Assembly: GCA_964658305.1 (NCBI GenBank)
Contig: OZ210885.1
Coordinates: 24,428,001 to 24,492,000 of the forward strand
Source: Leptogorgia sarmentosa
Lineage: Eukaryota
Length of the DNA stretch: 64,000 nt
Direction: 5' to 3'
A program made the position numbers and the translations under genes. How positions within the stretch are numbered: the stretch's first letter is position 1; every line of letters begins with the position of its first letter. Positions 1 through 45,510 of this stretch are shown piece after piece. Under the pieces are notes generated by a model. That model was not told the DNA's origin and did no database searches. It was given only the letters and a program-made list of their open reading frames with translations.

Positions 1-1683
1 CCGACAACAGACTTAAACGAACAAGATAATTCCATTATTGATAACTGCTTCCATCAAATGCTGCTCACTTCTATTGTGGGGTCCAATTTGACTGCAGTTT
101 GTGACTGGAGTGCTGACTTGGCCTATTTTAATAGCTTATTTGGCTCATTAAATTAATTAGTAATAACTTACATTCTTCTTTGCTGTTTGTTTACTTTAAT
201 AATATATCGCGATATTCGTTAGATCGGTAGTAAATATACGAATATTATTTGCAATCATGTCGAATTGTGAAGTTAAGATAATGCTGGGAATATTAAAGAT
301 GATTACAATCGGTTTTTACTTCGTTTGGTATAATTTATACAGCATAAGCACCGCGGGCAGTAGTATTATTAATATCGTTATTTGTTTATATTACTTACAA
401 TCGTCGGTCTGTTTATATATGACGTTGTCGTGCTGAGCTTTTCCCGACTTTTATGCAAATTTAACATAATGGGAGCACTCAGAATAATTTAAGACATGGC
501 GTAGAAGTGTATTTTAATATCGAAAGTAGAAAGTGACTTGATATGCAAAATGAGAAAGGTGACCTTGCAAGGTCAAAAAACTTGACAATTGATTGATCTG
601 TAATTCCGCACCTATTTATTTGCCCAACGAAAATTTTATATCATTTGAAAGCCAGAAACGTAGAGAGTAAACAGTGGTAATCTTAAATAATTTCAAGCTT
701 TATCGCATGTTTAAAAATTTCGTCGAATGTTGGGCAGCTTTTGTGGAGTAAGAATATATTTCTGAAAGTAAAGATTATTTAGAGTGCAACTCGTAGGTCT
801 AATTTCCTAAAAATATGTATACTGAATAATTACTTATCAAGGAAAACGTTTCAGGCAATTTTAACTGAGTACGAGTAAATTTTAGTAACAAATTTTGCCT
901 CCCAAAAATCATGCATATTTTGCAACTAAAATGGCAATTTCGAAGGGGTCGCTGTAAATCCTTGTTTTCTCAAAAATAAGCAAACGCAGGACTTCGTAGA
1001 GTATATAGCACATCTCAAGACACATTAGGCTACGTATGGAAAAGAAATGAGCGAAATCGATTTTTGAGCTTTGGCCACTTATTGTTCGATTTTTGTGGAC
1101 ATTCACTCTTAATTACTTAATAGTTAATATATAGCACCGAACAGTGAACACAACGGAGACATTGTTGAGAGATTCGTGACGAGGGGGGAAAGGAGATTAG
1201 GCAGATTACGATCAGAGGGAAGAGAGCGAACGTTAAGATATATACCATAAATACAAAACCTCAATTTCTACCGAACTATTGGCTCATCAATTTAAAGAAG
1301 ACAGAGAGGAGACCAAAGTAAGCCTAAATATAGATATTGTTCAATCCGTTAGCGAATTTAAAATATACCACAAATTAAGGAACAGATGTTAGCATCACGA
1401 ACGCTACGTACATTATAGTATAGTCATATAACCTTTATATATCCTGTTTAGCCATAAATTTATCATAGTTCATTTTCCTACTCTAGTTCGAACTCGCACA
1501 ATCGATAGCTACTTGTAACCGAATTGATATCTCGAAATAATTAAAGTCTACCGAAACACTGATCTGAAATAGTCTATTGTCCAGCGAAGTTTGAAACCCT
1601 CACGCGATCAAAAGAGCCATCACCCCTGTAGGCCCAAACGAAGCCGTCAAGAAATCTAAATCAAGCCTACAAGACCTATTTAC

Positions 1684-1935
1684 AGGGATACCAGAGCACA
1701 TTTACCACTACCCAGATGAATATGGTGGGGAAAGGTGTGGGCTTGCCCTCACCGATGAACAACTCCAAGAAGTGGCAGAAGTATCAGGTATTCTTGATGG
1801 CACCAACGACTATTTAGATGAAGCGTTCCGTAATGAATGTGAAAGACATATTCCTAATACTGATGATATTGAACCATCGCAAGCTGCAAATGCATATTTA
1901 TATTTAAAAGCAAACTTTGATGAAACCAGACTGTA
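1684..1935 (+). pseudogene. C-terminal exon of IS3EU-type DDE transposase
   Basis: Manual translation GIPEHIYHYPDEYGGERCGLALTDEQLQEV...AANAYLYLKANF* resembles the C-terminus of 36656-37330 (GRPDELYSIPEYHGGEDDLLVPVT...EAEALYCNL). Confidence 0.6.
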
Positions 1936-2048
1936 ATAGTCCATTTTTTACATTTTATTGATGCTTAAACTGAACATGAAGAAAACTCATAAAGACCAAT
2001 ATGAACATCAAGATAAACATATTATTTTAAAAGTCATCACAACATAGT

Positions 2049-2989
2049 CTATTTGGATTTGATAGATAGTAGGTTACAAAACTTGTTGCACCTGTGATTG
2101 GCAAAGAAGTTTCCAATGGCTTCAGTTGACAAGTTACCAATGCAGAAAAACACTGCATCATCTTTGGGGTCAGTTAGACCAGTGGATGCAATTTCTGGAT
2201 CTGCACAGCTTTCCTGGTGTGTGCCTCAAGCGATCCAAACAATTGTGTGATTTCGTCAGTTTTATCTTTCAAATATTTCTTCAAGATGTATTTGCCAACA
2301 GGAAGGCCACTCAGTACATTCGCTACGTAAGCTTCGCAAAATGATCCTTGAGCAAATGGGACTCTACGAAGGGAAAGCTTGACTTCAAAAGGCATTAACC
2401 ATTCCATCTCAGCTATCGAAAACTCCTCCGAATGTAACGTAACTATGTCAGAATCCGGGTTAATGACTTTCCCAATTTTTAGCATCTTACTAAGTGAAAT
2501 CGATGGCGCCACAGACATAGGCAATCGTGAGCTTAAATTTTCAGATCTCGGCATTACATTTGTGGGGGTACTGCGTTTTTTGGGGCTATGTTTGGTAGGT
2601 TCACTTTGACGGTTAGCGACAAGGCTTTGTGCGCCAAGCCCATATTCAATGAATCGCACTTTCCAATTCTTTATTTGGGATGTGCTTGTGTACGATGGGC
2701 CACGTTCACCAGCGAGAATATTGCATTCCAATTCAGTATCAAAATGGACTTTACACGCATCCTTTATGGTTTCTAGTGTGGTTTCTTTTTCTTCCATTGG
2801 CACCCAGGTCAAGGGCCCAATTTGCGTGTACTTCTGGCACTTGCCTTCTACATTGGCTGATAAACGTTGCACAGTTATACCGCCTTCAACATTGACAGAT
2901 TGATTTTTCTCGCCGCGAGAGTTCTTTCCCCTCTTTTTTGCGATCTTATCTTTATAATTATCCCAGTTTTGGCATCTTTTCGCGGACAT
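2049..2989 (-). pseudogene. Alpha-kinase (eEF2K/TRPM7-type) domain protein with an internal deletion
   Basis: PFAQGSFCEAY (P-loop) and YILKKY are present. After a frameshift near 2200 comes DPEIAS...FCIGNLSTEAIGNFFANHRCNKFC, the alpha-kinase C-terminal Gly-rich and Zn-binding motif. The middle of the domain is missing. Confidence 0.8.
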
Positions 2990-4561
2990 ATTATTCACAT
3001 TGTACAGAACAAAAGTACTTTCGTTTTTACTGTAAATAAGCGTGTTTGCTTTCAGGCCCAGGTTTCAACTTTTTAGGTGGCAAATCTGAAACCCACCCGC
3101 CTGCTAATGGGCATTATGGTCCAAACGTCTATGGCACTCATAGGCCAATAGCTGTATTTTTTTTTTTTGGAAAAAAACCTATGGCACAGATAGGCCATAT
3201 AAACTTATTTTTTTGTTTCACTTTAGAATAAAAAAAGAAAAATCAGAAAAAAATTAACATAACATAATAATATTTTAAAAATATTTTATTTATTGTTCAT
3301 TTTATTTTTTTTAATTTAAAATATTTTCCATTATTTATTTTTTTTCATAAAAAATATTAAATTGTCAACAGATATTTCTAATGGCATTCCTAGGCCACCA
3401 TACACGTTACCAGAAGACATGGCGAAAAAGTTGTTATCCAGGCAATACCACATTCCCTTAACCACATCTGGCAACGAACACTGTACTTTGTGCTTCGTTT
3501 GAAGAAATACGCTTCTCGTCTGATTAACAGTTTATTATCCAACGATGAAACAAACTTTCTATTACAGAAATAACATAAGAATTACAATAAAATAAAGCCT
3601 TTCGCACAATAAAAATACATCTGCTACTTACAGGAAGTTAGTATAATCTTTCTGGCAAGATCCTATCTCACAATAATAGAAATAATAAAGTTAGTCTGCA
3701 ATGTTCGCTCTCTCATAACAACAATAACAAGTGTTCGTAGCACCACTTGGTCAGCGGTAACAAGTGAGACAGTACTTCATGACATACACTCTGCATCGTT
3801 GTTTGGTGATAATTGAAAGGTTGGATAAATGAATGTCTTACAGACCCAAGCACATCAATGTTTCCCATCAGTTGTTGGCACATTTGAAATGATGTGTAAC
3901 CTCAAAAAAAAGATATATGGAAAATAGAACGTTAGGACTATTTCATACGTCGAATTTTGGTCACGCCGAATTCCATTCCAACTCCCATGCAACGGCTTTA
4001 AAACACGCAGGACTAGTAGTAGAGCATGTGCATTCACAAGTTTACAACCCACCAAGCAATCTTTCCTTATTTCAGTTACAGTCATTTGCCAGTTGTGGGA
4101 GGATGTCACTGTTCAAAAACAACTATAGCTTTACATCTATATGCTATTGCATGTTAGTTACCTAAAAACAGATCTTCAGCTGTTATTTGTGAAATATCTC
4201 TTTGTGGCATTGTGGCAGTTTCCTTACACATCATTAACTCTTCAATTTCGCTTATGTCAGGGATAATTGCTCCTCTTACGGTAAAATTCCACATCTTAGG
4301 CCCCAAAGATTTGAAAAGTCTTAGATGGCGTTTCCTTCCATGATAAATATTGTCCATTAACAAAATAACTGGTGTTGTTTCAGGGCACTTGTCTTCGATA
4401 AGCTTTGACAATCCTTCTTGGCGATGATCAAGAAAATTATTTCTAAAAGTAAACAGAAAAATTACTTAATTTGTGCTATACTGTGTCTGTATGTAGAAAG
4501 AATGTTTTGAGTTTCACATCACTATAATTGGGTGAGTAATTTACATTACATGTATGTTATA

Positions 4562-6035: not shown

Positions 6036-6202
6036 TGTGATAAATGCAGATTTCAACTTTAGATACTGTTCCAAGTTCCCTTTATAAAAAAGGACCCATG
6101 GACATGTGCTCGGGCCTTTCTGGGGGGGGGATTGACATTGTGTTAGAGTAGACTGGGAGTGATAGACTAAGGGAGTAAATAAAACGTACCAAAAACTTTA
6201 CA
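6036..6202 (+). repeat. 5' LTR
   Basis: GACCCATGGACATGTGCTCGGGCCTTTC matches 10472-10499, and ATTGTGTTAGAG...ACTTTACA matches 15537-15602. The 5' start is uncertain. Confidence 0.75.
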
Positions 6203-6216
6203 TGGTACCAGGAGTG
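6203..6216 (+). promoter_or_regulatory. Primer-binding site, complementary to tRNA-Leu(TAA) 3' end
   Basis: TGGTACCAGGAGTG immediately after the LTR CA; complement of ...CACTCCTGGTA-CCA, the animal Leu-TAA tRNA end as I recall it. Confidence 0.75.
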
Positions 6217-6233
6217 TAACTCAAGATATAGCA

Positions 6234-9200
6234 ATGTCAGAACCGTCAGAGACAGAGACAACAAGCGGTGAGCAGGTCGCGACGACGGCCCATACGCCAC
6301 CCAACACAACAACAACAACGACACAAGTTCAACAACCAACACCAATATTCACGAGCAAACTACCTACGCCACCGAATATCAATTTGAAAGGCGACTTGAG
6401 AGAGCACTGGAAGCAGTGGAGACAGATTTGGGATGCATACACCCTTGTTACAGGCCTGAACCAGCAAAGCAACGAGTTCAAAGTCGCCACATTCGTCACA
6501 TGCATTGGCCAAGAAGCGTTAAAAGTGCATAATGGGTTACCGTTTAAAACCGACGAAGAGAAGATCGACATGGCAAGAATTCTTGAACTGTGGGGCGAGT
6601 ACTGCAACGGCAAGACTAACATTATTTACGAGAGATACAAGTTCAACAACCAACAACAAAAACCAGAGGAAAGTATCGACGCGTATGCCACCACTCTTCG
6701 AGACTTTGCGAGCTCTTGCAACTATGGCGCACTACAAGAAGAAATGATCCGAGATCGCATTGTGTGTGGAATAACTAACTCCAGTATACGAAAGAAGCTC
6801 CTTCAAATCCCAGACCTCACCTACGACAAATGCATCGATGTTTGCAGAGCGGCCGAAGCAACCGAAACCCAGATAAGCGCAATGAAGTCTAACGAGACAA
6901 CATATTCGTCAAATGACGCCATTAATGTTGTTGGCAATTCCAGGAAAAAGCCGTCCGAAAGTGACCCGGGCAGGACGGGGGGTAATACCACCCTTGAATG
7001 TCGATATTGTGGCCGCCAACACAACAGAGGGCGCAATCACTGCCCAGCGTTTGGCAAATCATGTGCAAAGTGTGGGAAAATGAACCACTTTGCCGCCAAA
7101 TGTTTATCAGCCAGGAAAACTTCCATTAATACGCTCCAAGTCCAGGACACCGACGTGAGCAACGACAATATGATCGACATGGTCTCCCTGCGCGAAGAAG
7201 ATAGAGACATAATGCATGTCACACAACAGAGAGACACAGGAAAGATTTTTGCTACAATGAAGATTGGACGCAAAACAGTGAAAATGCTTGTTGATTCGGG
7301 GGCTTCCTGCAACGTTATACCGGCTAAGCATGTCCCTCCAGCGACAACCATAACCCCAGCCAACAACTCCCTGGTTATGTACTCAAAGCCTGCAATCGGG
7401 ACGACACAGCTGAACATTCTGAATCCGAAGAACGCAAGGAAACACGTGGTAAAATTTGTTGTAGTGAACAGGGAATACACACCACTACTGGGACTCCAGA
7501 CTGCTCAGGAAATGGAAATGTTAACTATTCAGCACGATAACATCCTTAACACGGTGGACAGTAACCACCCGACCGCGACAACACCCACTCCACGTCCAAG
7601 AAACCTAGAGGAGGTGATGACAACCTTTGGAGACGTCTTCGATGGCACACTGGGCCTCATGCGGGGGGACGTACACCTAGAGATTAATGAAAATGCGAAG
7701 CCAACAGTCATGCCACCACGACAAGTACCAGTAGCAATCAAACCAAAATTGAAACAAGAGCTGGAGCGAATAACGGCAAGGGGTGCAATTACACCAGTCC
7801 AGGAACCGACTGAATGGGTTTCCAACATGATAACCACGATAAAGCCAGACGGGAGCCTCCGTCTTTGTATCGACCCGCACCACCTCAATCAAGAGCTGAA
7901 GCGAAGCCATTATCCCCTTCCTGTGATTGATGACATCCTACCTGACCTCCACAAAGTAAAGGTGTTCTCGAAAGCGGACCTACAAGAAGGGTTTCTACAA
8001 GTGGGTTTAGATGAGGCATCCAGCAGACTAACCACCTTTCAAACGCCCTGGGGTCGATATCGATGGCTACGAATGCCTTTCGGGATCTCGCCCGCCCCAG
8101 AGATCTTCCAGATGAAGCTGCACCAAAATTTAGAAAGCGTGCCAGGAATCTTCACAATAGCTGACGACATTCTGATCACGGGCCAAGGTGACACCGCACA
8201 AGAAGCCGAAGAGGATCACGACCGAAACCTAGCGAGCTTCCTCAGCCACTGCAGGGGCCAGCACATCAAACTAAAGAAAGCGAAGTTCCGGTACAAATGC
8301 GCAGAAGTCCAATTCATGGGACACAGTTTAACCAATGAGGGCCTAAAGCCAGACCCCCAGGAAGTGGACGCCATTCGCAAAATGGGAAAACCACAAGATG
8401 TCGCCAGAGTGCAGAGGTTGATTGGAATGGTCAAATACCTCGCCAAACTCCTTAACAATCTCTCTCAGCTTTGCGAGCCCATCAGGAGACTGACGCACCG
8501 AGACACGGAATGGCAGTGGACGAGCAAACAAGATGATGCATTTCAAAAGATCAAAGAAGCAGTCACCACAGCACCAGTATTACAGTATTTTGACTCCACA
8601 AAGCACACAGAAGGAAGTGGAGATGCTTCATCGCAAGGAATTGGATTCGTCCTAACGCAGGATGAACATCCTATAACGTACGCAAGCCGCGCCCTTACTA
8701 CTGCTGAACAACGATACTCACAAATCGAGAAAGAACTACTCGCTCAAGTTTTCGGTCTCGAGCATAATCACTACTACACATATGGCAGAAAACTCACCCT
8801 GTGGACGGATCACAAACCGCTAGTATCGATTGCCAACAAGCCGCTGGCCTCAGCACCCAAGCGTCTCCAACGCCTTATGCTCAGACTACAACAGTACGAC
8901 GTAGAAATAAAGTACAAACCAGGCAAAGAGATGTTTGTAGCCGATACTCTTTCAAGAGCCTACCTCCCTGACCAACAGCAATCCGATGTCGAGAAAGAAG
9001 TTGAAAGCATACATGCGGTCAACCATCTAGCCATTTCCCAAGAACGACTTGCGGAAATAGAAACTATAATCGGTGGGTGGCCCAACAACAAAGCTCAAGT
9101 CGCCAGGGAAATTCAACAGTACTACAGTATTCGAGATGAATTGTCCGTGCAAAATGAAATCGTGTTCAAAGGGCAACGATGCATCATCCCGAAGAGCCTC

Positions 9201-10365
9201 CGCAAGACGATTAAACAGAAACTACACCGATCTCACGTAGGAGTACAAGGCTGCCCGAGGTGAGCCCGCGAAGTAGTCTATTGGCCAGGGATGACGAAAG
9301 AGCTAACAGAATACATCCAGCAGTGTGAAACATGCAACACCTACTCCTTAGAACAGCAACGACAACCACTTATCTCCCACAAGGTACCCGAAAGACCCTG
9401 GCAAAGAGTGGCGTGCGACATGTTCACATTACAAGGCAAGGACTACCTATGCACGGTCGACTATTATTCGGGATACTTTGAAGTAGACAAGCTGGAAAAG
9501 AAAGATGCAAAACAGGTCATAAAGAAGCTCAAGCGTCATTTTGCTGATCATGGGATCCCCATTGGATCCCCATGAACTTGTAAGCGACAACGGACCACCC
9601 TACAATTCCGTAGAGTTCGCCACCTTTGCACACGACTATGAGTTCGAGCTGAGAAAAAGTTCACCCACATTTCCCCAGAGCAACGGCCGGGCGGAGAATG
9701 CGGTCAAAACAGCAAAACAGCTTCTCAAGAAAGCTATCAGCAGTGGGAACGATTTCTACCTCTCACTTCTGGACTGGCGAAACACGCCAACCGAAGGCCT
9801 CGACAGCTCTCCAGCACAGCGGCTGCTCGGAAGACAAACACGAACGTCCCTACCCACGACGACCCAACTCTTGAAACCCAAGGCGCCAAAGAATGTGCGC
9901 GCAAACATGATTACAAAGAAAAACAAGCAAAGGAAATACTACAACCGGGGAACCAAAGACCTCCCTCCACTAAAGAAAGGCGATATCGTTCGGGTAGACC
10001 CACTACCAACAGACAAGCAAAAAAGATGGTTCAAAGCAAGAGTGGAAAGGAAAGCGGATATTCGTTCGTATGTCGTACAAACGTAAGTGGGACAACAGTA
10101 CCGACGAAACCGAAGACACCTGCGAGCAACAACAGAACAATTCGATGGTTCAGTTATGGGGGAAGACCACAGGGAGGACAATGCCACACCAGCAGAGGAC
10201 AAGGGAATCAGCATCCACAGGAACATAAAGCCAGGGAAACCAGATAGCAACGCCGGCACGATTACCGGAGCCAGCACAACCAGTGTCAGCACAGCCAGGG
10301 CCACCACGAACAAGTGGCAGAGAAACAAAACTCCCCGGACATCTGAAAGACTATATTCTAAGTAG
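6234..10365 (+). pseudogene. Gypsy gag-pol polyprotein (gag, Zn knuckles, protease, RT, RNase H, integrase), disrupted
   Basis: CAKCGKMNHFAAKC knuckle; VDSGASCN protease; RMPFGI...IADDIL RT; DASSQGIG/TDHKPL RNase H; HHCC plus ACD/SDNG/AENAV integrase. Stop at 9261, frameshift near 9560, stop at 10084. Confidence 0.95.
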
Positions 10366-10640
10366 AAAATAGTGAGACAAACTTACGTCATCTGTTCATG
10401 TTAAGTTGTGTTCGAGAAAAGGGAAGATGTAACGATAATGGTGATTGGTCATTCATGGACCAATCACAAAAGACCCATGGACATGTGCTCGGGCCTTTCA
10501 CATTAGAGAGTTTTAGATTGGCGCTCTTTTTGAAAACGGCAAACTGCGGTTTGACGTTTGCGGTTAGAAGTTTGACGTTATTATTTAAAAAGACTTTAGA
10601 TTGTATCTGGTAATAACCAGACAATCTAGAGTAAATCAAT

Positions 10641-12351
10641 ATGGCTGCTGCAAAGAGGAGGTAAGATTTGCTTATTTTGTAGCTTCAACTGCCAACAAAA
10701 TTTGTCCAGAAAAGCCGAAGTCAATTATTTTTCAAATTAACTTTTATAGAAAAAACTTTGGTGACATTGTGGAGTTTTTACTCTACGACTCAGATTCTTC
10801 TGATGACGAAGATGATTTGTTTGATGATTATGATCTAATTTTATATGAAATGGCTTTTACCCAAAAGCCAATGCTTGGACCTCGTCTCAATTTGCAAGAT
10901 GTCTCCGAAGACGATTGTGAAAAAATGTTTAGGTACACATTGTATATGTTTCGATGTTGAAGTATTATAGGCCAAATCATTCGTATGATTTATTGAAAAT
11001 AATCAATTTAGGTTTCAGAAAGAAGATATGCAACGCCTGTTTCGAGCACTAAACATGCCTGCTCATTATATTTGTGAACAAGGAACAAAGACATCCGGAA
11101 TGGAATGCTGAGGAGGTTGAGCTATCCCAACCAATTGACCGACGTTGTTCCAATCTTTGGACGATCAGAATAAGAACTAAGTCTTATCTTCAATCATGTA
11201 AATATTTTGTTATGAAAATTCAAGTACAATTATAATTAAAACGTAATGAATGATTTAAATTAAAAAAAGACCTGAAATTAATATCATCCACGCTTTAGGT
11301 AGTTGATGACCTTTATGGAAGGTACAACGAAAGGCTTAGCATGTTAGACGCGGTATGGCTAGACCCTGAAGCTTTTTCTCAAGCTATACATGCTAAAGGT
11401 TGCCCACTGACACAGTGCTGGGGTTTTATTGATGGCACTGCCAAAAGTATCTCAAGACCAATTTATAATCAGAAAATTATGTACAGTGGACACAAGAGGA
11501 TTCACTGTCTAAAATTTCAGGTATTCCTAAAACCCTTTTATGGCTGTATTAGTCCATACAACACAGCAATCTGCTTTAAATTCACATTAAGTAATGCTGA
11601 TCTAGAAAGGGACTAATACCATGTCCCACTAACCTATTCCTGTGATGAAATCAACCCAACTATATAATATTGGTACCATATTTTCCATATCAACCTATCC
11701 CCCAAGGGGGCTTATTCTTTCAGACCTTTTGAGAAGGGCTTATTCGGGGGGGGGGGGTTAATGAGAGCTTAATAAATTTAATAAATATCTCTATGTACAT
11801 AAATGGAGCAGGCTTATTGGGAAGGGGGTCAATAGAGGGAACATGGCAATTCTGTTTTTTTTCCGTTCAGTCAGTCCAGGCCCCTAATGGCATGATCACT
11901 CATTTGTTTGGACCAATTGAAGGACGGCGCCATGATGCATTTATGCTCGGAGAGAGTGGCCTCCTTCCAAAATTGCGGCGTCTTACTAAACGGAGAGCCA
12001 TATGTTATATATGGAGACCCATATGTTATATATGGAGACCCTGCTTATGGTCTGTCAAGAAATATTCTTGCTCCATTTCGAGGTGCAATCTTGACAGATG
12101 AAGAGAAGACATTCAACAGCGCTATGAGTAAAGTCAGAGTCAGTGTGGAATGGGGTTTTGGGAAAATTCTGCAGAACTTCGCCTTCATAGATTTCAAGAA
12201 AAATTTGAAAATTTTACTGCAACCTGTAGCCAAATATTACTTAGTTGCTGGCATCTTGACTAACTGCCATACATGCTTGTATGGTTCTGTAGTAAGTAGG
12301 TTTTTTGAGCTTGCCCCACCACAACTAGAGGTATACCTGTCTAATCAGTAA
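10641..12351 (+). pseudogene. Harbinger/HARBI1-like transposase, multi-exon, disrupted
   Basis: CWGFIDGT, YSGHKRIHCLKFQ, EGRRHDA, YGDPAY and VRVSVEWGFG motifs; GT-AG introns; lesions near 11105 and 11171. Confidence 0.9.
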
Positions 12352-23800: not shown

Positions 23801-24616
23801 GATATGCCAATGCAGTTGCAGTTCGACTACCGCTTCAGTCGAGCTATGAAGGAACACTTGAAGCAGATGTGCACAACCAAGTTTTCCTACTACACAAATG
23901 CAAAGTCTCACTATCCAAGAGTGAAATCTGACTTGAAGTATTCAGCTTTGCCAAAGACGTCCCCACCAGCAGCAGCACAGTTAACAAAGCCACAAATGCA
24001 GCAAATGAGAGATTGGCGCATAAAGTATGGTCAAAGTGTTCCACAAAAGACCGTGCGAAACATGAGCACAAAAGACAATCCCGGAACTTTGCCAATAAAT
24101 CTCTATGCCCATGCACAGCCAACTAGCGAGCCTTTGGATTTCTCGAAAATCGCAGATAATGGTGCCCAAACAGATTCGCGTCATGACACGCATGACCTTC
24201 TTCATTCCTCAGGAGACGTTGTTTTTCTTGCTTCGGACGCTATTGCTGGTCGGATGATGATCTACCTTCCACAAGAAAACGTAAGTGCCTTGACAAAGAA
24301 AGCAAGTGCCACCCATTTTGAAGGTGAGCCTTTCAATCCACTGATGTTTACAGAAGGAGGAGCTGTCAAGGTGAATGCCAGAGACATATCGGGTTCTTTG
24401 GAGAAAACTGTTTCAGCTGATGGTAACCTTGAACTGACAGAGAATGAGTTTCTGAGGTATCAGTCGAGAATGATTGATTGTGTAGATGCGGTGACTATTG
24501 AAGAGGCGAGAGAGATTAGTGAGTCCTTGGATGCGGATCAAGAAAGTCTAGTCGATGTAAGGCCAAGGCGTGCAAGAAAGAGGCCACATGCTGACGATTT
24601 TGTTTATTTTGATTGA
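17842..24616 (+). pseudogene. P-superfamily-like DDE transposase with inserted Cys cluster, NHL repeats and SAP-like motif (multi-exon, several lesions)
   Basis: DGMQLKPGLLFD..LVG (D1, 21601), VSQDSES (D2, 22102), DAVHVAK (DxxH, 22199), DRQDV, VENFFAEMR (E, 23765). NHL repeats at about 22501-23420. Probable upstream exons 17842-18195, about 18650-18929, 19762-19877, 20411-20574. Stops at 21559 and 22114, frameshifts near 22180, 23070 and 23125. Confidence 0.75.
19146..19584. mobile_element. Non-autonomous Crypton-like element in an intron
   Basis: Long hairpin centred on CCGAAGCGAAGCTGAGG and inverted repeat TTATTATACATTT/AAATGTATAATAA; same architecture as 15243-15536. Confidence 0.55.
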
Positions 24617-32176: not shown

Positions 32177-32749
32177 TACGGTGGCCCACAAGGGTCACTA
32201 AAACTTTCTTTTAAATTGACTTAACTTTGGTGTTTGCCGACCAAACTTTATTAAACAAATATATCTTTTGTAGCGATCAAACTTTCTTTTGTTCATAGCG
32301 ATCAAACTTTCTTTCGTAAACTAGATGTTATCCTATAACAATACCCCTCAACAAGGGCATGACCATTTCTATTTAATAATACATAAAATTTGAGCAAAGT
32401 AAAGAGATTTTACGCGAGAGAATCCCTCAATACGAGCTATTACATGAATGTACAAGGAGAATTAGTACATTAATTTAGTTATATTATTTATTATTTTAAA
32501 TTACTTATTATTTTCTTTTGATCTTTAGTAATGCATGTGTTACAATATTTGTCTACAATATTTAATTTGCCCGCCCGACATTTGTGACTTGTATTGTATT
32601 TTGTTGGATATGTATCCACTTCCCACTGACACTTCCTCGTACACTTCGATTATTTATAAAGACATAAAACTGCAAGAGTAATTCTTAAAAGCAGTAAAAT
32701 ACTTACACTTCCTCTCCTTCCTCCATTGTGAATTCGACGAATCACGCCA

Positions 32750-34560: not shown

Positions 34561-35315
34561 TTTTGACACAAGTTCACAGATTCGTTCCCTTCTCTCTCCC
34601 GCTTGCGAAGCCGAAGGCTCCATTATGCATTATGTATAAATTAAACAAAGAGTCAGAAGACACAAGTCGGAAGTCAGAAGTGGGCCTCCTCGGCCATCGT
34701 AATACTCTGATTAGTGCAACACTCGTTCATTGCTTGTGTTGTGCTACCATTTTCAGTACTCTTTTAACAGTGACACCTGGACAGGTTTTAATGTTGAAAT
34801 AGTAGTGTCAACATTAATTTTTTTATATTTTAAAATAACTTTTTAAAATTGTGATGACCTTCCAGGTAAACTTTTCAAAAAAATGGAAAGCCTGAAATGT
34901 GCTTACAGGAAAGCAACACAATTTGGACAGGGAAACTTGTTTGTTTAGAGCTGGTCTAGATCACCAATATAAACCAATATAATGTTGGTACACAAAGATC
35001 CATAAAAAGATGAATTCTGAAGTACACTGGAAAGAGTTTTTCTAAATTCAAGTATCACTGACAAAATCAAACCATTAAGCTTCAATGGGCACTCATGCAC
35101 CATAAAATATCTACAAAATTATTGGAAAGATTGATTTTTGAACTGGAAACTGAGAGGCTGTCTCCAAACTTGTCTAGCTTTCTCACTTAGGGCAATGCAA
35201 GATGAATATGGACAACAGCTTTGAATTTTGAAGATTGATGATGAATTGGTTTCTTAAAGATAAACCTACGGTGGCCCATACCGGCAATACAGATATATTT
35301 ATTTCAATACAAATA

Positions 35316-36225
35316 CTCTCTCCTTCGCAGAGGCTTTTGAAGGAATAAATTCGAAGGAGTAAATTCGAAATTGCGCTAGAAGGTATCTGGTATAAAGACA
35401 ACCGCTGAAACTATGCGCGGGCGAGGGGGGAAGCGAAGGGGAAATTCGCGGAAGCCTCTGCCCGATTTGTGTCGATATCTGTGACAAATTGTCGATATCT
35501 GTAGCATCCTTATATATCTCAACAATCTTTTCTATTTTAAATTTTATTTGATAATGTGAGGACATTTTGGATAAAGATCTGTTGGCCAGCGTATATATTT
35601 TGGTATAATATTGTGTTTACGAGATGGCAGAATTGAATGAAAATAACCGGTCTAGTCAGGAGGGAGATGTCCTCAATTTGTCTACTGACAATTGCGAAGT
35701 TGATGTATTAAACGTTTCTTTTGAAAGGGCTATCAAGTTTTCCTTGGTTTCATTTGCAGCAAATTTTCTCAAACATTTCACTCCGTCTTTCAGCGCATTA
35801 TCATTGAATTCGGTGGCTCTGTGTCTAATTCGGTATTGTTGTTGAAGGCCTATTTGAAGGCCTATTTGACTAAATATATCTGTTGTTTGTGAACCACAGA
35901 CAGCACAACACGTTTTTCCGCTCCGCAAAGCCAAAAGAAATTGTCTTTGTCATTTGTGGACATGAATATTCATACGCACCTGCGCCATTTTGCCTCAGCT
36001 TGAGAATCTGCTCGAGCCATTCGAGCCTGCCTCTCCCCCCGGTTTAACGCCATTTTGGGACACAAATCGGGCAGAGGCTTCCGCAATTTTCCCCTTCGTT
36101 TTTCCCCGCGCACCGATTTCAGCGGTTGTCTTTATACCAGATACCTTCTAGCGCAATTTCGAATTTATTCCTTCGAATTTATTCCTTCGAATTTATTCCT
36201 TTAAAAGCCTCTGCGAAGGAGAGAG
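35316..36225. mobile_element. Non-autonomous TIR element with 9-bp TSD (AcademH- or MULE-type)
   Basis: TIR CTCTCTCCTTCGCAGAGGCTTTT (about 150 bp, imperfect); TSD ATACAAATA at 35307-35315 and 36226-36234. Confidence 0.8.
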
Positions 36226-36483
36226 ATACAAATATGTCTATTTCAATGCGAATATATTTACTTCAATACAAATATATTTATTTCAATACAAATATATTTT
36301 CCACCAATACAAATATATTTGTTCTGATACAAGTATAATTTTTCTCTGATACAAATATATTTATTTCAATACAAATATATTTTTCACCAATACAAATATA
36401 TTTTTCACCAATACAAATATATTTTTCACCAATACAAATATATTTTTCACCAATACAAATATATTTTTCACCAATACAAATTT
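36226..36483 (+). repeat. IS3EU left subterminal 21-bp tandem repeats (AATACAAATATATTTTTCACC)
   Basis: Directly visible; mirrored at 44975-45230. Confidence 0.9.
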
Positions 36484-36601
36484 TTCCTGTCCCATGAGCC
36501 CACGAACATGCACGATTTTCGAAACAACATGGCCGATGGTGGGAACTTCGAATGTGCAAACTGCAGCCAAACACTTTTAATTACATACAAGTATTGTATG
36601 T

Positions 36602-37330
36602 CTTAAGCCTTACGGATTTCCAATCCATGGGTGCATTGATGGCTGGAGTAGGAAGGTGTTGTGGTTAACACTAGCTCGTTTGAATAATGACCCCAACATA
36701 CCAGCAACGATCTACCTTGAAACAGTGGCAGAGCTAGGAGGATGCCCAAGAAAGGTGAGAAGTGATTGCGGTACTGAGAATTGCCTTATGGCAGCTATGC
36801 AGTGTGAATTATGTGGGCAAGAAGATTCTCGCGTTTATGGGACATCTCCTTCAAATCAACGAATTGAGTCTTGGTGGTCCTCATACAGGAGAAACAGATC
36901 AACCTGGTGGATCAATTACTTTAAAGACCTAATTACAAGAGAGTTGTTCAATCCAAGCAATGTGTTGGAAAAGGAGTGTTTGTGGTTTTGTTTTTCCAAA
37001 CTGTTACAAGAAGATTTAAACAAAGTAAAAAGCCATTGGAATACCCACTATATCAGGCACTCCAGGCATGATACTATCTCAGGAAGACCAGATGAGTTAT
37101 ACAGTATTCCAGAATATCATGGTGGTGAAGATGATTTGCTTGTTCCTGTGACAAATGATAAAATCAATGAAACTAGGGGGCATTTAACAAGCACCAACGA
37201 GGAACCTGCAAATATGTATCAAGATTATTTTCAACATATTGTAGACATCAGCAACCTCCAAATACCATCAATGTGGACAGAGGCTGAGGCATTGTACTGT
37301 AATCTGGTTGAGGTTGCTAGGTCAGAATAA
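36602..37330 (+). pseudogene. IS3EU-type (integrase-like) DDE transposase, 5'-deleted
   Basis: LKPYGFPIHGCIDGWSRKVLWL...PRKVRSDCGTEN...NQRIESWW...WNTHYIR; the region expected to hold the first catalytic Asp is missing. Confidence 0.85.
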
Positions 37331-38027
37331 CCTAGTATCATGACTTTGTAGCACTGCACTGTGACCAGGGACATTCCCAATATTGGAAAAAAAATCAAAT
37401 ATACAGAGTGTTCCTTGTGCAATGGAATTGACTTAATTATGTAATTGCCAGTACTGTTTATGGCATTGTTGTACAAATGGATCATCTTTGTGCTGCTTAT
37501 ATTTTGTTTTTGGTACATAATTAAAATAAATGTCCTAATACAGGGTGTATTGCAGTGGAATTGGAATATGCAAATTAGGTAAAAGAAAGTTTCAGAGGCT
37601 AATTGGAGAACTGACAATTAAGTAAATTTTGCACAATTTTTAACATTGATTAAATGCATAACCAATTATTTCTTAGATATGAATGCAGAATCTGTTTAAG
37701 CTTAAAAATTCCATGCACAAGCCATTTCTGTTTTTTCAGAAAGGACAGCCCCTCTAGTTAACACAAATTGATCATTATTTTACATTATGAGTATAGTACC
37801 AGTTACACGTCTACAATATTATTAACAATTTAACAATATGAAGTGTATCGCATGTAAACTGAAAATTTACCTGAAATTATACCTTATATATATATATATA
37901 TATATAGATAAATTGGATTTGTAGTTGAACACAAGTATCATATATATAAAAAAAGTGTTTTGACAACAGAAGAAATGTAACCACTTGTTTCTTAAATATG
38001 AAACATTTTATTAGATACACATATATA

Positions 38028-40738
38028 TACGTAGAAGGTGTTCTCGAGTGAGAAATTACCAAAGCGAGCAAGCAGTAACACTGACTTGCCGCGGACAGGA
38101 TTCGAACCCTCGACCTCCGCAATGCTAGCGCGACGCTCTACCAGCTGAGCTACGTGATCAAGTACGAATTTGTCCTGGTAATTGGAAGGTCATACTAAGC
38201 GTCATAGACATACTCGTCTACATCAGTTTAGCGTCGAACAGTACTTAGTTCATTGGCTGTGTGTGTGGTGTGTTGTTTTTGTTCACTCGGTATATAGGTA
38301 CGTAGAAGGTGTTCTCGAGTGAGAAATTACCAAAGCGAGCAAGCAGTAACACTGACTTGCCGCGGACAGGATTCGAACCCTCGACCTCCGCAATGCTAGC
38401 GCGACGCTCTACCAGCTGAGCTACGCGATCAAGTACGAATTTGTCCTGGTAATTGGAAGGTCATACTAAGCGTCATAGACATACTCGTCTACATCAGTTT
38501 AGCGTCGAACAGTACTTAGTTCATTGGCTGTGTGTGTGGTGTGTTGTTTTTGTTCACTCGGTATATAGGTACGTAGAAGGTGTTCTCGAGTGAGAAATTA
38601 CCAAAGCGAGCAAGCAGTAACACTGACTTGCCGCGGACAGGATTCGAACCCTCGACCTCCGCAATGCTAGCGCGACGCTCTACCAGCTGAGCTACGCGAT
38701 CAAGTACGAATTTGTCCTGGTAATTGGAAGGTCATACTAAGCGTCATAGACATACTCGTCTACATCAGTTTAGCGTCGAACAGTACTTAGTTCATTGGCT
38801 GTGTTCAGCAGCCAATGAACTAAGTACTGTTCGACGCTAAACTGTTCACAGCCAATGAACTAAGTACTGTTCGACGCTAAACTGATGTAGACGAGTATGT
38901 CTATGACGCTTAGTATGACCTTCCAATTACCAGGACAAATTCGTACTTGATCGCGTAGCTCAGCTGGTAGAGCGTCGCGCTAGCATTGCGGAGGTCGAGG
39001 GTTCGAATCCTGTCCGCGGCAAGTCAGTGTTACTGCTTGCTCGCTTTGGTAATTTCTCACTCGAGAACACCTTCTACGTACCTATATACCGAGTGAACAA
39101 AAACAACACACCACACACACAGCCAATGAACTAAGTACTGTTCGACGCTAAACTGATGTAGACGAGTATGTCTATGACGCTTAGTATGACCTTCCAATTA
39201 CCAGGACAAATTCGTACTTGATCGCGTAGCTCAGCTGGTAGAGCGTCGCGCTAGCATTGCGGAGGTCGAGGGTTCGAATCCTGTCCGCGGCAAGTCAGTG
39301 TTACTGCTTGCTCGCTTTGGTAATTTCTCACTCGAGAACACCTTCTACGTACCTATATACCGAGTGAACAAAAACAACACACCACACACACAGCCAATGA
39401 ACTAAGTACTGTTCGACGCTAAACTGATGTAGACGAGTATGTCTATGACGCTTAGTATGACCTTCCAATTACCAGGACAAATTCGTACTTGATCGCGTAG
39501 CTCAGCTGGTAGAGCGTCGCGCTAGCATTGCGGAGGTCGAGGGTTCGAATCCTGTCCGCGGCAAGTCAGTGTTACTGCTTGCTCGCTTTGGTAATTTCTC
39601 ACTCGAGAACACCTTCTACGTACCTATATACCGAGTGAACAAAAACAACACACCACACACACAGCCAATGAACTAAGTACTGTTCGACGCTAAACTGATG
39701 TAGACGAGTATGTCTATGACGCTTAGTATGACCTTCCAATTACCAGGACAAATTCGTACTTGATCGCGTAGCTCAGCTGGTAGAGCGTCGCGCTAGCATT
39801 GCGGAGGTCGAGGGTTCGAATCCTGTCCGCGGCAAGTCAGTGTTACTGCTTGCTCGCTTTGGTAATTTCTCACTCGAGAACACCTTCTACGTACCTATAT
39901 ACCGAGTGAACAAAAACAACACACCACACACACAGCCAATGAACTAAGTACTGTTCGACGCTAAACTGATGTAGACGAGTATGTCTATGACGCTTAGTAT
40001 GACCTTCCAATTACCAGGACAAATTCGTACTTGATCGCGTAGCTCAGCTGGTAGAGCGTCGCGCTAGCATTGCGGAGGTCGAGGGTTCGAATCCTGTCCG
40101 CGGCAAGTCAGTGTTACTGCTTGCTCGCTTTGGTAATTTCTCACTCGAGAACACCTTCTACGTACCTATATACCGAGTGAACAAAAACAACACACCACAC
40201 ACACAGCCAATGAACTAAGTACTGTTCGACGCTAAACTGATGTAGACGAGTATGTCTATGACGCTTAGTATGACCTTCCAATTACCAGGACAAATTCGTA
40301 CTTGATCGCGTAGTTCAGCTGGTAGAGCGTCGCGCTAGCATTGCGGAGGTCGAGGGTTCGAATCCTGTCCGCGGCAAGTCAGTGTTACTGCTTGCTCGCT
40401 TTGGTAATTTCTCACTCGAGAACACCTTCTACGTACCTATATACCGAGTGAACAAAAACAACACACCACACACACAGCCAATGAACTAAGTACTGTTCGA
40501 CGCTAAACTGATGTAGACGAGTATGTCTATGACGCTTAGTATGACCTTCCAATTACCAGGACAAATTCGTACTTGATCGCATAGCTCAGCTGGTAGAGCG
40601 TCGCGCTAGCATTGCGGAGGTCGAGGGTTCGAATCCTGTCCGCGGCAAGTCAGTGTTACTGCTTGCTCGCTTTGGTAATTTCTCACTCGAGAACACCTTC
40701 TACGTACCTATATACCGAGTGAACAAAAACAACACACC
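38028..40738. repeat. Tandem plus inverted array of 271-bp tRNA-containing units
   Basis: About 3 units on minus (38031, 38302, 38573), inversion junction near 38803-38850, 7 units on plus; bounded by (TA)n tracts; almost no divergence between units. Confidence 0.95.
38949..39021 (+). ncRNA. tRNA-Ala(AGC)-derived Pol III head (representative of 10 copies; other + copies at 39220, 39491, 39762, 40033, 40304, 40575)
   Basis: A box TAGCTCAGCTGG, D arm GCTC/GAGC, anticodon loop CT-AGC-AT, B box GGTTCGAATCC; acceptor and T stems are mispaired, so SINE-like or pseudo-tRNA. Confidence 0.75.
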
Positions 40739-40922
40739 ATATATATATATATATATATATATACAGAACTTGTGTAAAAGCTATCACATGATATATAATG
40801 TCATGTTTATTATTAAATCTAAGACAAGAACATGATACAGCCGGCCATGTGTCCTGGCAGAACTATAATTAATGGGAACTATGTAAGAACAGTAACAACT
40901 ATGTAAGAACAGTAACAACTAC

Positions 40923-43900
40923 TCAAATGTTACCTAAACCCATGCAGTCACCCATTGCAGAAGTCATGATCTCCTGCATATGTTCATAACTATTTAAATG
41001 AGCTGGTAATGTTATTACCAAATCACAAGTTGAAGTGGTAGGCCTGCACTGACAATTTGGTATGCAACCATGTAAAAATTGGCATTTGATTCTTTTTGGG
41101 AAGCCCAATGGGGGTACACATCTTGATCCAGTTAACCACTGCATGAAGTCAGCAATCTGCAGCCCTCCAATTCCTGTCAAAATAAACAGTAATAAATCAT
41201 TACACTACTGCTTTAAGAACTTAAAATAATTTAAAAATTTCAGCTGAAGTACACTTACTATTTTCACCCAAAATTTGTAAAAAGTCACAGAAGTATGTGA
41301 AAACATCTCCTTCAACCTCTCGTTTTTGTTGAGCCTGGCTATACTCAACATCAATGCTATCCATAAGCATGGTTGCATTCACACATGTCCCCTTCCCTGG
41401 GACTAATACTGTTTCCCACATTGTTCTTGATTCCCTGATACAATCAACAAGACCATAGGTGTTCAGGCCTTCTTCAATGTGGCTCAGCTGTGGTAGAATG
41501 CTTTGCACCTGGTCTTTTATACAAATTGACCTACAGTACGTACAGTACATGTAAATAACATCACAACGCATGGATCACAACTTAAAGCTACACAGGGCAA
41601 ATGCCTTACAAATACTTTACCTTATAAGGTTCCCAATCAGGCGCGGATCCAGACCGTGGCGAACGGTGCTCGCGCCACGGTCAGATTTTTCCCACCTTTT
41701 CCTGATATTAGATTAAAGTATATATAAATGAATAATAATTTGAAATAAATCCTTCAAAATCAAGGAAATCTGCATCTATTGCAGCCTATTTGAATAACAT
41801 TTTCCCTTATTGTTCACATTATTTTATGTGGTGTCGTATTTCGCGTCAAACGCAATGAAAGCGCCGAAATATTATGTCTCTTCAATAGCATAATCATTCA
41901 GTTAACACTGAACTATAAAAACAGCCGAAACCGTACCGAACTGTGCCGAATATGTTCGGTAAACAGTCGCAAATTTAAAGCTGCCGCCTGCGATCACAGC
42001 CACAAATTTTGCCACGGTCAGCGTGCAAAAAGTTTCGCAATTGTTACTAAATATAGTAACATTCTGCCACGGTGCAGAGGTGCAAACCAATCACAGGGCT
42101 AGCTGTGGTCATGTGCGCCACGGTGCGCCACGGTGAGCGTATTTTTATTGCGCAATGCAAATGATCAACGATGAGTTCGGGTACTCGTCGGATTTGACGG
42201 GTAGAATTTCATAACAAAGCTATACTAGTTATCGAATGCTTGTTAGAATGGAGGCTTTTGAAAAGGTCGATGTTCTCAAGAAGCTCGTTGAAATCTTTCA
42301 AAAACCGAACCAGGGCGAAGATATTTCAGGGAAGTTATCCCTCTTGAGGCAACAATGTGAGAAATTTATCACTGAAGGAAAGCTGCGCCATATAAAATCT
42401 ACAGGGACATCGTGCTGCGAGTGTGCGAATTTTCCAAACTGCAGTTCCCCAAGAGTTAAATTGAAAGATCTGGGCCTAATATCCCTGTTAAGTAAGAATT
42501 TTTAATCGTTTTATATTAAATTTGCATTTGCGCTAGGGCCAGGGAATATTTGTGTATGCACATTTTATATGTAAATAATATTTGAAGTTGGTCAAATAGT
42601 AATATGATCTCGAGCACATGGCGATGACCGATTGCCAATAGAACATAAATTTTCTCTCTAAAATATGGCGAATTAATGGCGAATTATATGATAGAATTCG
42701 ATGCTCTGAACGCAGGAAATGTGTTCAAATTTCGAAAATTTACCGGGGGGGTGCCCCCGGACCCCCCTGGTTATGCGAGTTTTTGACCCTGCCACGGTCA
42801 GATTTAATGCTGGATCCGCGCCTGCCAATTGTATTCTTAGTTTCACGTTGGGGGACACCTTGATAACCAACTTCCTCTAGTATGGAATAAAACTTTTCAT
42901 CCAAGAGTATGTGACCATACTCTCCATCATTGGCATTCAATAGCTGAAATGGCAAACATCTATATATTATCCTTAGTGTTTAGCATACAGCTAGCAGTAC
43001 AGACTGGTATGTATTTATGATAAGAACAACATGAACAATAACAATGATAACAATAAAAGTAATAATCATCATGATAATAATAATACCATAACCATTTAAA
43101 CATAACCTGTATTATTTTTTATAACTGAACCTGTGTGCAAAGATCTTTATGAAGAGGTGAAGTTATATCTTCCACTTCCAGGTTGTTGCTGAGGTAGTTG
43201 AAAACAATCTGGGACAAGAAACTAGGTGCCTGCCCTCCATGGATAATAGACATGGCCATTACTTCACCAGCCATCTTAAAATCCCCTTTTGACAAAGCAA
43301 CAGTGGAATTCAGAGGAAAACCATTGTGAAACAAGCGATGTTCGATGAACTGAAGCATTTCTGCAAAAATAAACAATTGCAATAACTATGTACATGATTG
43401 TATATTTTATTTCTATAACAACTATTTTCATGAGGCAACACCTGGTCCTTGGCATCTATACTTTTAACAGGGCTGTTTGTTATTTTTACAAACTGTGGGC
43501 TATATTACAGCATTTCTTCCCGGTAAACTGATCTCAGTATTCAACACGTCATTTACTTCAAATTCAAGATCTTTGGTTTCAAAGTCCTTAGGTCTTACTT
43601 TTCTAGATAGCAATGTTTATGGTAATATTATTATTATTGGATTGATGTATGGAAATAATGATGTGCTCTCTTGACATTGTTCATACTGTTACCTGCAAAG
43701 AACTCTCTTTTGGGTCCTCCATCGTCAACTGCTGGTTCTGTTGAAAATGTCACTTTGAGAAGTCTGGTTGGGTTGTAGTACATCTTTCTTGCCCTTCTAT
43801 AGTCTTCCCAAATAGATTTGCGCCTCACAGTTATTCTAACTGGGTCTTCATCCAGCTGCAAATATCTCTTTTTAAGAGATTCAATTGCTGATTTGATGCA

Positions 43901-44860
43901 CTGTTCCTTGTTAGTTGGCCCCGGCAATGAGATGTTACTGATTTGATTAATACCTTCATCCATTTCATCGCTATCAGTATCAAGCAAGTTTTCAGCACAG
44001 ACATCTGCATGGTCTGCAACCTCTGCTATAGGGAATTTCTTGAAACAGGTCGGACACTCAATTTCATAGGATGTGGATGGACTACAAAGCTCTACCTCAC
44101 TGAAGGCGGAGCTTGTTGATGGTCGTGATGACAAATGACCTTCATTCACTATTGGCTGATCATTGGAAACATGACGAAGCTTCACAGCATAGACCGGCAA
44201 AACGTCATTGTTTTCCTCGTCATCACTGCTGTCGCTGCTTTCGGACTTGATTACTCTTTTCAAAGCATTGATGAAATTTCCCTTTTCCATCAGATACAAC
44301 ACGATCCGGGCATAGCCGAAGCCAGATTCTTCCTTGTATCTTTGTAATGTGAATGGCTCTTCAAGATTCGTTCCAGGTACAGCCCTCACTTCGCCTCCAT
44401 CTCTGAAAACCAATTTATACATCTTTTTTGCATTAAATTTTCGATTGAAGGACTTGTGCTTTGCTTCTGCCGCTTCACGAATCTGATCAGCTGTGGCTGA
44501 TGGTAGGACTTTTAAGGGTAAAGACTCCCAGCGTCGCAAACTCTCATCTTCGTTCATCACCCCGATTTGGATCGTTACAGGCTGTTCAGGCTTGGGTTTT
44601 TTGCTACCCTTTTTTCGGAAGGAGGATGCATCTGCCTCTTTTCCTTTTTTGAACTCTACGAACGAAGGACGTCTAGTGACTCTAGTCAATGTCGTTGATG
44701 ATGGCGTCGTGGCGCTTGTCGCTGGTGTTGCAGTCTGAACGGTTTCTCTGCTGCTGCTGGTCGAGACTGGTGATTTTGATCCACAGGAAGGGCAATATGT
44801 AAAGCTAATTTTCATTGTAAATCCACACGCAGAACAAATTTTCCTTCGACGATCGGCCAT
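40923..44860 (-). pseudogene. G2E3-like HECT E3 ubiquitin ligase with N-terminal Zn ribbon, ubiquitin-like region and UBZ-type finger; 5 exons
   Basis: EPAVDDGGPKREFF, AGEVMAMSIIHGGQAPSFL, FMQWLTGS..VPPLGF and PTTSTCDLVITLP (catalytic Cys). Exons about 44860-43693, 43361-43131, 42947-41621 (split by a MITE), 41531-41259, 41176-40923. Confidence 0.88.
41638..42824. mobile_element. Non-autonomous hAT-like element with 5-bp TSD (hAT5-like)
   Basis: TIR CAGGCGCGGATCCAG / CTGGATCCGCGCCTG; TSD CCAAT; repeated GCCACGGT motifs; splits a HECT exon. Confidence 0.85.
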
Positions 44861-44974
44861 ATTGCCTCGTGGCGACGGCGACAGTCGACACCCCGCCCCG
44901 CGCTCGTCCCCAGGGCCTTAAACTGTGCCAGGGCAGAGGCAGAGCGTACAATTTTTATATAATGAAAATAATAA

Positions 44975-45230
44975 ATATATTTGTATCAGAAAAAATATAT
45001 TTGTATTGGTGAAAAATATATTTGTATTGGTGAAAAATATATTTGTATTGGTGAAAAATATATTTGTATTGAAATAAATATATTTGTATCAGAGAAAAAT
45101 TATACTTGTATCAGAAAAAATATATTTGTATTGGTGGAAAATATATTTGTATTGAAATAAATATATTTGTATTGAAGTAAATATATTCGCATTGAAATAG
45201 ACATATTTGTATTGAAATATATTTGTATTG
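44975..45230 (-). repeat. IS3EU right subterminal 21-bp repeats
   Basis: Reverse complement of 36226-36483. Confidence 0.9.
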
Positions 45231-45510
45231 CCGGTATGGGCCACCATATAAACCACTTCTAGAGACCTGGATACATTGAAGAATTTTAATTGCAATTATA
45301 GCACATCAATTATTACTATGTTTAATTTTGGAGATGTTGATTTCTTCCTTGATTCACTGTGGATAAATTTTGCAATAAAGAAGAATGGATTTGCAAAAAC
45401 TATGAGAGAATATACAGTAGATATTTTATATATTAGGGGCTGTTTATATTTTGTAGCCTGCTTGCAGCCTACTTGATAAGAATTTGGACTTTGGACAAAA
45501 TAACAGATTC

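Follow-up and report, generated by a model that had tools for sequence, protein, structure and literature searches.

A decayed IS3EU/GingerRoot transposon in Leptogorgia sarmentosa and the inherited alpha-kinase gene of its animal relatives, with a predicted ubiquitin-like domain

We analyzed a stretch of 64,000 nucleotides from Leptogorgia sarmentosa (contig OZ210885.1, positions 24,428,001 to 24,492,000), hereafter the window, which consists of repeat-rich animal DNA. Positions 1671-3402 hold a dead, 5'-truncated copy of an animal IS3EU/GingerRoot cut-and-paste DNA transposon, in which the tail of a transposase gene faces a broken alpha-kinase gene on the opposite strand (Table 1). A preliminary description, made from the sequence alone, had placed this feature at 1684-3402; its right boundary stands, while its left boundary moves to 1671, where the transposase tail is cut. 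The geometry reported there was confirmed: the kinase gene begins 413 nt from the right end and converges on the transposase 3' end at 1936, and with the kinase stop at 2049 the two genes are 112 nt apart in the window copy. Several other repeats are present in the window. A Gypsy-type LTR retroelement, whose gag-pol ORF is 1026 aa long and whose integrase is frameshifted, occupies 6183-10500; the gene model P0003, an integrase joined to half a kinase, was dropped as linkage evidence because its integrase part matches this Gypsy element and not IS3EU. Three plus-strand ORFs in succession (21562-24616), which give NHL and weak SAP matches, are likely a decayed large transposon gene. Finally, remnants of Harbinger type (DDE_Tnp_4) and of CACTA type (weak Transposase_21), together with a 607-aa ORF that lacks any Pfam match, are found at 11896-12351, 62100-62726, 50128-51444 and 32750-34573.

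Table 1. Positions of the features of the two IS3EU elements in the window.
Feature	Position	Strand	Remarks
Transposase C-terminal tail, IS3EU/GingerRoot DDE	1671..1936	+	last 88 codons; remainder lost
Alpha-kinase C-terminal remnant	2049..2201	-	DPEIA..HxCNxxC zinc motif; out of frame with the upstream part
Deletion junction	2201..2202		310 nt gone, equal to 103 kinase residues including NNxG and the DxQG catalytic loop
ORF2, N-terminal two thirds	2202..2989	-	basic helix, Ubl domain, low-complexity linker, pre-kinase segment, kinase N-lobe
Predicted ubiquitin-like (beta-grasp) domain	2642..2884	-	from the model of relative P0013
Subterminal palindrome TGGC-N8-GCCA	3132..3147		candidate transposase-binding site
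Subterminal palindrome TGGC-N8-GCCA	3182..3197		candidate transposase-binding site
Right terminal inverted repeat	3382..3402	-	TATGG end, TGGC-N8-GCCA at position 6
Second IS3EU element, with HECT gene	35267..45248		both ends, TAAACC 6-bp duplication, decayed
Partial transposase of the HECT element	36581..37330	+	PF24764 E 2.8e-24; retains the second D and the E, the first D being deleted
Predicted ubiquitin-like domain of the HECT gene	44270..44599	-	model pLDDT 83, from 4 sequences

The kinase ORF begins with an ATG at 2989 on the minus strand, covers the N-lobe as far as RKAVQ and reaches a stop at 2049. Its N-terminal part is 81.5% identical over 265 columns to an intact relative of 425 aa, P0015, which matches the alpha-kinase profile PF02816 with E 5e-34. 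The C-terminal remnant was detected by the same profile in frame 2052-2225 (E 1.1e-4, 22.9 bits against a Pfam cut-off of 21.3) and also by tblastn with full-length relatives. At the junction between the two parts, contig 19 of sequencing run X4 holds 309 extra letters and one shared base, and in P0015 and P0026, the intact relatives nearest to the window copy (about 82% identical), the 103 residues are in place. The window kinase is a pseudogene, because NNxG and DxQG are lost with the 310 deleted nucleotides, the frame is shifted, and the copy lacks a complete catalytic core. The N-terminal module described earlier, running from ITVQRLS to RFIE, is indeed present, at a length of 78 aa rather than about 90, and in the window copy it is without three residues of its last strand.

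Assignment to IS3EU/GingerRoot is based on TA..TA ends (TAYGG..CCRTA), a 6-bp duplication and an IS3/integrase-like DDE transposase, the duplication and the DDE motifs being read in relatives and the truncated window copy having lost its own left end. BLASTP with the two window transposase pieces gave no match, so the link to IS3EU was made via related loci. The window tail is 55-64% identical to the last exon of the DDE transposases in related loci such as L001, L002, L006-L008 and L012, and its close relatives are transposase genes with D, D and E motifs and PF24764. Another X4 contig continues beyond 1671 into a transposase NHRIR motif, a loose end judged by eye, and this motif precedes the corresponding transposase tail in relatives. 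Upstream of 1671, other repeat DNA takes the place of the element's 5' part. In the repeat DNA at 1000-1671, many contigs stop or diverge at 1465-1500 and at 1671.

As the preliminary description had noted, the two window elements have a terminus motif in common, TATGGTGGCC, found on the minus strand at 3393-3402 and 45239-45248. This ten-letter motif has 5 matches with at most one mismatch in the window and 10 out of 100 shuffles reach 5, so the count is not above chance. Copies of the kinase element were sought in public sequencing runs, and contigs of other runs (two samples, two studies) part from the window at 3402, 3404 and 3407 and continue into three distinct flanks. Because of these flanks we accept the earlier proposal that 3402 is a genuine terminus. 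A right end as at 3402 was found in 13 families. The palindrome TGGC-N8-GCCA has 4 sites in the window against 0.44 expected, and in 13 related families it occurs 24 times in 4,921 bases, in which the TGGC/GCCA pair with spacers of 4-7 or 9-12 was never encountered; it is likely a transposase-binding site. A further TACGGTGGCC at 32177-32186 may mark where a third IS3EU-type element ends.

A search with a full-length relative of the kinase returned 141 proteins, with PF02816 in 112 of the 120 listed. The ORF in these relatives is about 400-450 aa long and mostly intronless, and DxQG is kept in 87/93 full-length ones. Named relatives come from anthozoans and one hemichordate, and entries called TRPM6, TRPM6-like, MHCK-like, ALPK1-like or vwkA-like were found in Exaiptasia, Paramuricea, Acropora, Oculina, Dendronephthya and Saccoglossus. 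Among viral contigs, 58 pattern matches to the kinase were obtained and none was confirmed. A metagenome scan confirmed 201 related stretches, of which the best 80 were used, representing 41 families at 85% DNA identity; this selection under-represents distant or domesticated kinases. Among loci with at least 1 kb downstream of the kinase, a convergent IS3EU transposase was present in 52/55 (28/29 families), where L007 and L027 had supplied the transposase queries and matched themselves. In none of the 55 loci was a transposase found on the kinase strand, and in three of them (L005, L032 and L051) no detectable transposase was found. The tie between kinase homologues and IS3EU transposases elsewhere, on which the preliminary description depended, is thus well established. 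The transposases of the kinase loci have an HTH, D, D and E motifs and a PF24764 match. Similarly, the end motif TAYGGTGRC lies less than 1 kb upstream of the kinase in 19 of the 26 loci with enough DNA, compared with 2 matches in 24,368 bases of opposite-strand control. Complete ends were recovered in several cases. For example, L074 has both ends, a TIR pair and a CTGCTG 6-bp duplication, and L069 and L070 have TIR pairs with a duplication matching at 4 of 6 positions. The right end of family 10 is found with four different flanks in L020, L022, L023 and L076 and has a matching left end in L021, which gives an element length of about 5 kb. Taken together, the identity of the element family and its fixed kinase-transposase linkage are close to certain.

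Some of these loci have further peculiarities. L069 (9592-11251), L070 (7076-8735) and L074 (7012-9259) are internally deleted derivatives of 1.7-2.2 kb in which both TIRs remain, along with the 5' portions of the two genes. In L056 (940-1000) the transposase, here intronless, and the kinase stand head to head with nearly overlapping starts; possible explanations are a chimeric assembly, assembly from RNA, or a circular or tandem junction at which both ends have been deleted. L004 (4617-7721) holds an intact-looking 1035-aa LINE ORF within or beside the 5' portion of its IS3EU transposase gene.

Kinase and transposase diverge together. Pairwise identities of the two proteins are correlated across 26 families (Mantel rho 0.53, 325 pairs, 0/2000 permutations), and in trees built from the 19 families with the best coverage 6 of the 7 starred transposase splits are also starred in the kinase tree, the seventh being unresolved. 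One conflict was seen, between a starred kinase clade (L004, L010, L011) and an unstarred transposase clade. Because the trees agree, the kinase is, judging from sequence, a fixed and inherited second gene of the element and not a swappable one. This co-inheritance is evidence of physical linkage, not of functional co-evolution. A profile of the N-terminal module pointed in the same direction. It matched 994 proteins; 142 new ones from the best 150, mostly fragments, were scanned, yielding 15 with an alpha-kinase and none with HECT, and 9 of the 10 longer module-bearing proteins inspected continue into kinase sequence. HECT sequence was likewise not found in the 80 kinase loci (best of 201).

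Selection was assessed in 13 intact intronless ORFs, with the zinc motif required for inclusion. In all 78 pairs pN was lower than pS, both in the Ubl domain (median 0.31 vs 0.86) and in the kinase domain (0.39 vs 0.81), with pS close to saturation. K, NNxG, DxQG and DPE are retained in 13/13 of these ORFs, and catalytic motifs are kept across kinases down to 33% identity. These patterns indicate purifying selection on both domains in the relatives. They also bear on the idea that the kinase is a captured host gene, carried as a passenger with no benefit to the element. Transposons do capture passengers, TET genes are described as moving passively (PMC12730594) and many kinase copies are broken, the window copy included. 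However, pN below pS in 78/78 family pairs, catalytic motifs that survive at 33% identity and a fixed position in 28/29 families are hard to reconcile with a passenger, and we consider this explanation very improbable. In intact elements, ORF2 probably encodes an active kinase that serves the element.

Fold comparisons of the kinase and of its N-terminal module were based on a model of relative P0013 (84 sequences, pLDDT 84). The kinase is predicted to adopt the alpha-kinase fold, with matches to MHCK-A (Z 25.7, rmsd 1.6, 207 aligned) and TRPM7 (Z 25.5, rmsd 4.5, 244 aligned). By profile, TRPM7 is the best solved match (106.5 bits), followed by MHCK-A (92.9), eEF2K (88.6) and ALPK1 (49.1). Model residue 165 onward corresponds to TRPM7 1554 onward and TRPM7 residues 1553-1562 form a dimerisation and activation segment (PMC2827801), with which the N-terminal segment of the kinase is predicted to align. 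The module model consists of strands at 35-45 and 50-60, a helix at 68-79 and strands at 84-88 and 108-113, with a block pLDDT of mostly 82-97. Residues 32-118 match the Rad23 UBL (Z 6.7, rmsd 2.9, 72 aligned) and the N-terminal domain of 12dl_BA (Z 6.9, rmsd 2.4, 66 aligned), middling Z values, obtained with the model of a relative, in a range where a match may reflect a common arrangement only. The matches span the whole small domain, the order of strands and helix agrees with beta-grasp, and the module is predicted to have a ubiquitin-like beta-grasp fold (beta-beta-alpha-beta-beta-beta). No sequence match to it was found in Pfam or the PDB, including PB1 or other named Ubl families, ESM Atlas gave no usable match, and the fold matches single out no Ubl subfamily.

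The second element of the window carries a HECT gene, also convergent with its transposase and with PF00632 above cut-off on the last exon. The model of its N-terminal module matched beta-grasp domains through most of the list (Z up to 8.7), with ubiquitin-fold Foldseek matches at E about 1e-3. The earlier guess of a ubiquitin-like fold for both N-termini therefore agrees with the predicted structures of both modules. The preliminary description had gone further and proposed one Ubl adaptor shared by the two genes, on which kinase and HECT would be interchangeable and swapped between IS3EU families. The two elements do have the terminus, the geometry and the type of 6-bp duplication in common, both modules model as beta-grasp, and an aromatic-x-x-aromatic-basic helix motif precedes both (94/166 kinase N-termini and 4/4 HECT ones, which is weak evidence). 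The adaptor itself, however, appears not to be shared, as profile comparison of the modules gave no homology (probability at most 0.3%, with a HECT profile of only 4 sequences and hence shallow). The transposase core of the HECT element shares 20-35% identity with 20 kinase-type rows, against 34-82% among those rows, and the subterminal motif has a spacing of N7 in the HECT element as opposed to N8 in kinase elements. Together with the co-divergence of kinase and transposase in 19-26 families and the lack of HECT in the 80 loci and 142 proteins, this argues against interchange, which we regard as improbable. A single, very old enzyme replacement between the kinase and HECT lineages is possible. 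In our preferred reading the HECT element belongs to a distant IS3EU lineage in which a gene for a Ubl domain plus an enzyme was assembled independently; the transposase tree is unrooted and the HECT branch long, so its placement is unsure.

What does the kinase do for the element? Our best explanation, to which we assign a probability of roughly 0.6, is that the fixed convergent gene for a Ubl alpha-kinase helps the IS3EU/GingerRoot element to transpose. From what is known of the family, an intact element would move by cut-and-paste through a DDE transposase bound to the terminal palindromes. The basic N-terminal helix may take the ORF2 product to the nucleus, where it would act as a dimeric Ser/Thr kinase, and the Ubl domain may recruit the substrate. 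Phosphorylation of a host chromatin or silencing protein could then let the element escape repression. The target is proposed because of two analogies: fungal IS3EU elements add a TET gene, which is proposed to counter methylation silencing (PMC12730594), and cleaved TRPM6/7 kinases act on histones, which they phosphorylate (PMC13143021). Taken by itself, a host chromatin or silencing target is a tentative suggestion, at slightly less than even odds.

The main rival to a host target is the element's own transposase. In PIF/Harbinger, the second protein of two-ORF transposons partners the transposase. By the same logic, the Ubl domain of the kinase would dock on the transposase, and phosphorylation of the transposase or transpososome would switch on or limit transposition. 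Strict co-inheritance of kinase and transposase suits this possibility, as do the stronger conservation of the Ubl domain relative to the kinase domain (pN 0.31 vs 0.39) and the description of IS3EU as encoding two proteins (PMC10853768). On the other hand, the HECT lineage of the same superfamily has another enzyme, joined to a Ubl that is not homologous, which fits a host-facing need at least as well. We judge action on the transposase to be rather unlikely, and keep to a host protein as the preferred target.

The pairing of an alpha-kinase with IS3EU is already in print for fungi (PMC12730594). In that account all TET-positive fungal families have the TET gene between the transposase and alpha-kinase genes, which lie in opposite orientations (Kojima 2025, PMC12730594). 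The fungal elements resemble ours in their TAYGG termini, 6-bp duplication and opposed transposase and alpha-kinase genes, but here the host is an animal and no TET/JBP gene lies between the two genes in the window copy. A ubiquitin-like domain is not part of the fungal description in the text accessible to us ('ubiquitin', 0 occurrences), and the fungal kinases were compared by description only; a term search of the accessible supplement found 0 occurrences of 'kinase'. The IS3EU/GingerRoot elements of Kojima and Bao 2023 (PMC10045372) and Cerbin 2019 (PMC6839031) share the TA..TA ends, the 6-bp duplication, the integrase-like DDE core (PF24764) and presence in corals. Term searches of the accessible main texts of both papers found no kinase, HECT or ubiquitin, and Repbase entries may already name the second ORF. 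Our literature search, which covered publications and not Repbase, found no report of the animal Ubl-kinase architecture. What is new relative to the accessible fungal account is an animal lineage in which the Ubl-kinase gene is fixed, and the parallel Ubl-HECT gene. In 2025 the structure and function of IS3EU were still called largely unexplored (PMC11934779), and a conserved animal element about 5 kb long, whose second gene encodes an active-looking kinase joined to a predicted Ubl domain, opens the role of the second protein to direct testing.

Known alpha-kinases such as TRPM6/7, MHCK-A, eEF2K and ALPK1 share the fold and the zinc motif. In contrast to these proteins, the transposon kinases have a basic helix and a predicted Ubl domain in place of the channel, WD40, vWA or calmodulin-binding parts, are only 20-30% identical to them and are located inside a transposon. 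Cnidarian kinase-only 'TRPM6-like' entries have recently been called misannotated (Morini 2026, PMC13143021), in a paper whose accessible main text has no occurrence of 'transpos'. The names of those entries are like those of our relatives, a likeness by name and not by accession, and the two sets are likely the same genes. The animal kinase element likely explains the cnidarian kinase-only 'TRPM6-like' database entries. More generally, many cnidarian genes annotated as 'TRPM6-like', 'MHCK-like' or 'ALPK1-like' may be transposon genes, in which case kinome counts would be inflated and kinase phylogenies misled. A broader and speculative scenario, which we hold to be unlikely, is that animal and fungal IS3EU/GingerRoot elements depend on a gene for a Ubl adaptor plus an enzyme, with the kinase as one ancient lineage and HECT as another, both disabling host silencing via chromatin proteins. 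The kinase lineage would then be the source of the invertebrate orphan 'TRPM6-like' genes and perhaps sister to, or donor of, the vertebrate ALPK2/3-TRPM6/7 kinase domain.

Several minor observations concern the HECT element. Relatives of its HECT ORF were sought in viral contigs, where none of 9 pattern matches was confirmed. The ORF, at 43634-44917, has a C4 zinc ribbon at its N-terminus (Pfam matches weak). It also contains a CPTC..HADxC motif that weakly matches the WRNIP1 zinc finger (E 0.81) and may be a finger that binds ubiquitin. Between the transposase and the HECT gene, inside the element, a 271-bp tandem array (38021-40739, 99% identical) forms two opposed blocks of about 3 and 7 copies; each unit carries a tRNA-Ala(AGC), and ARAGORN reports 8 genes. 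The left TIR of the element is about 290 bp long, is made of 21-bp repeats and is interrupted at 35316-36225 by another element, whose inverted ends are about 160 bp long and 84% alike.
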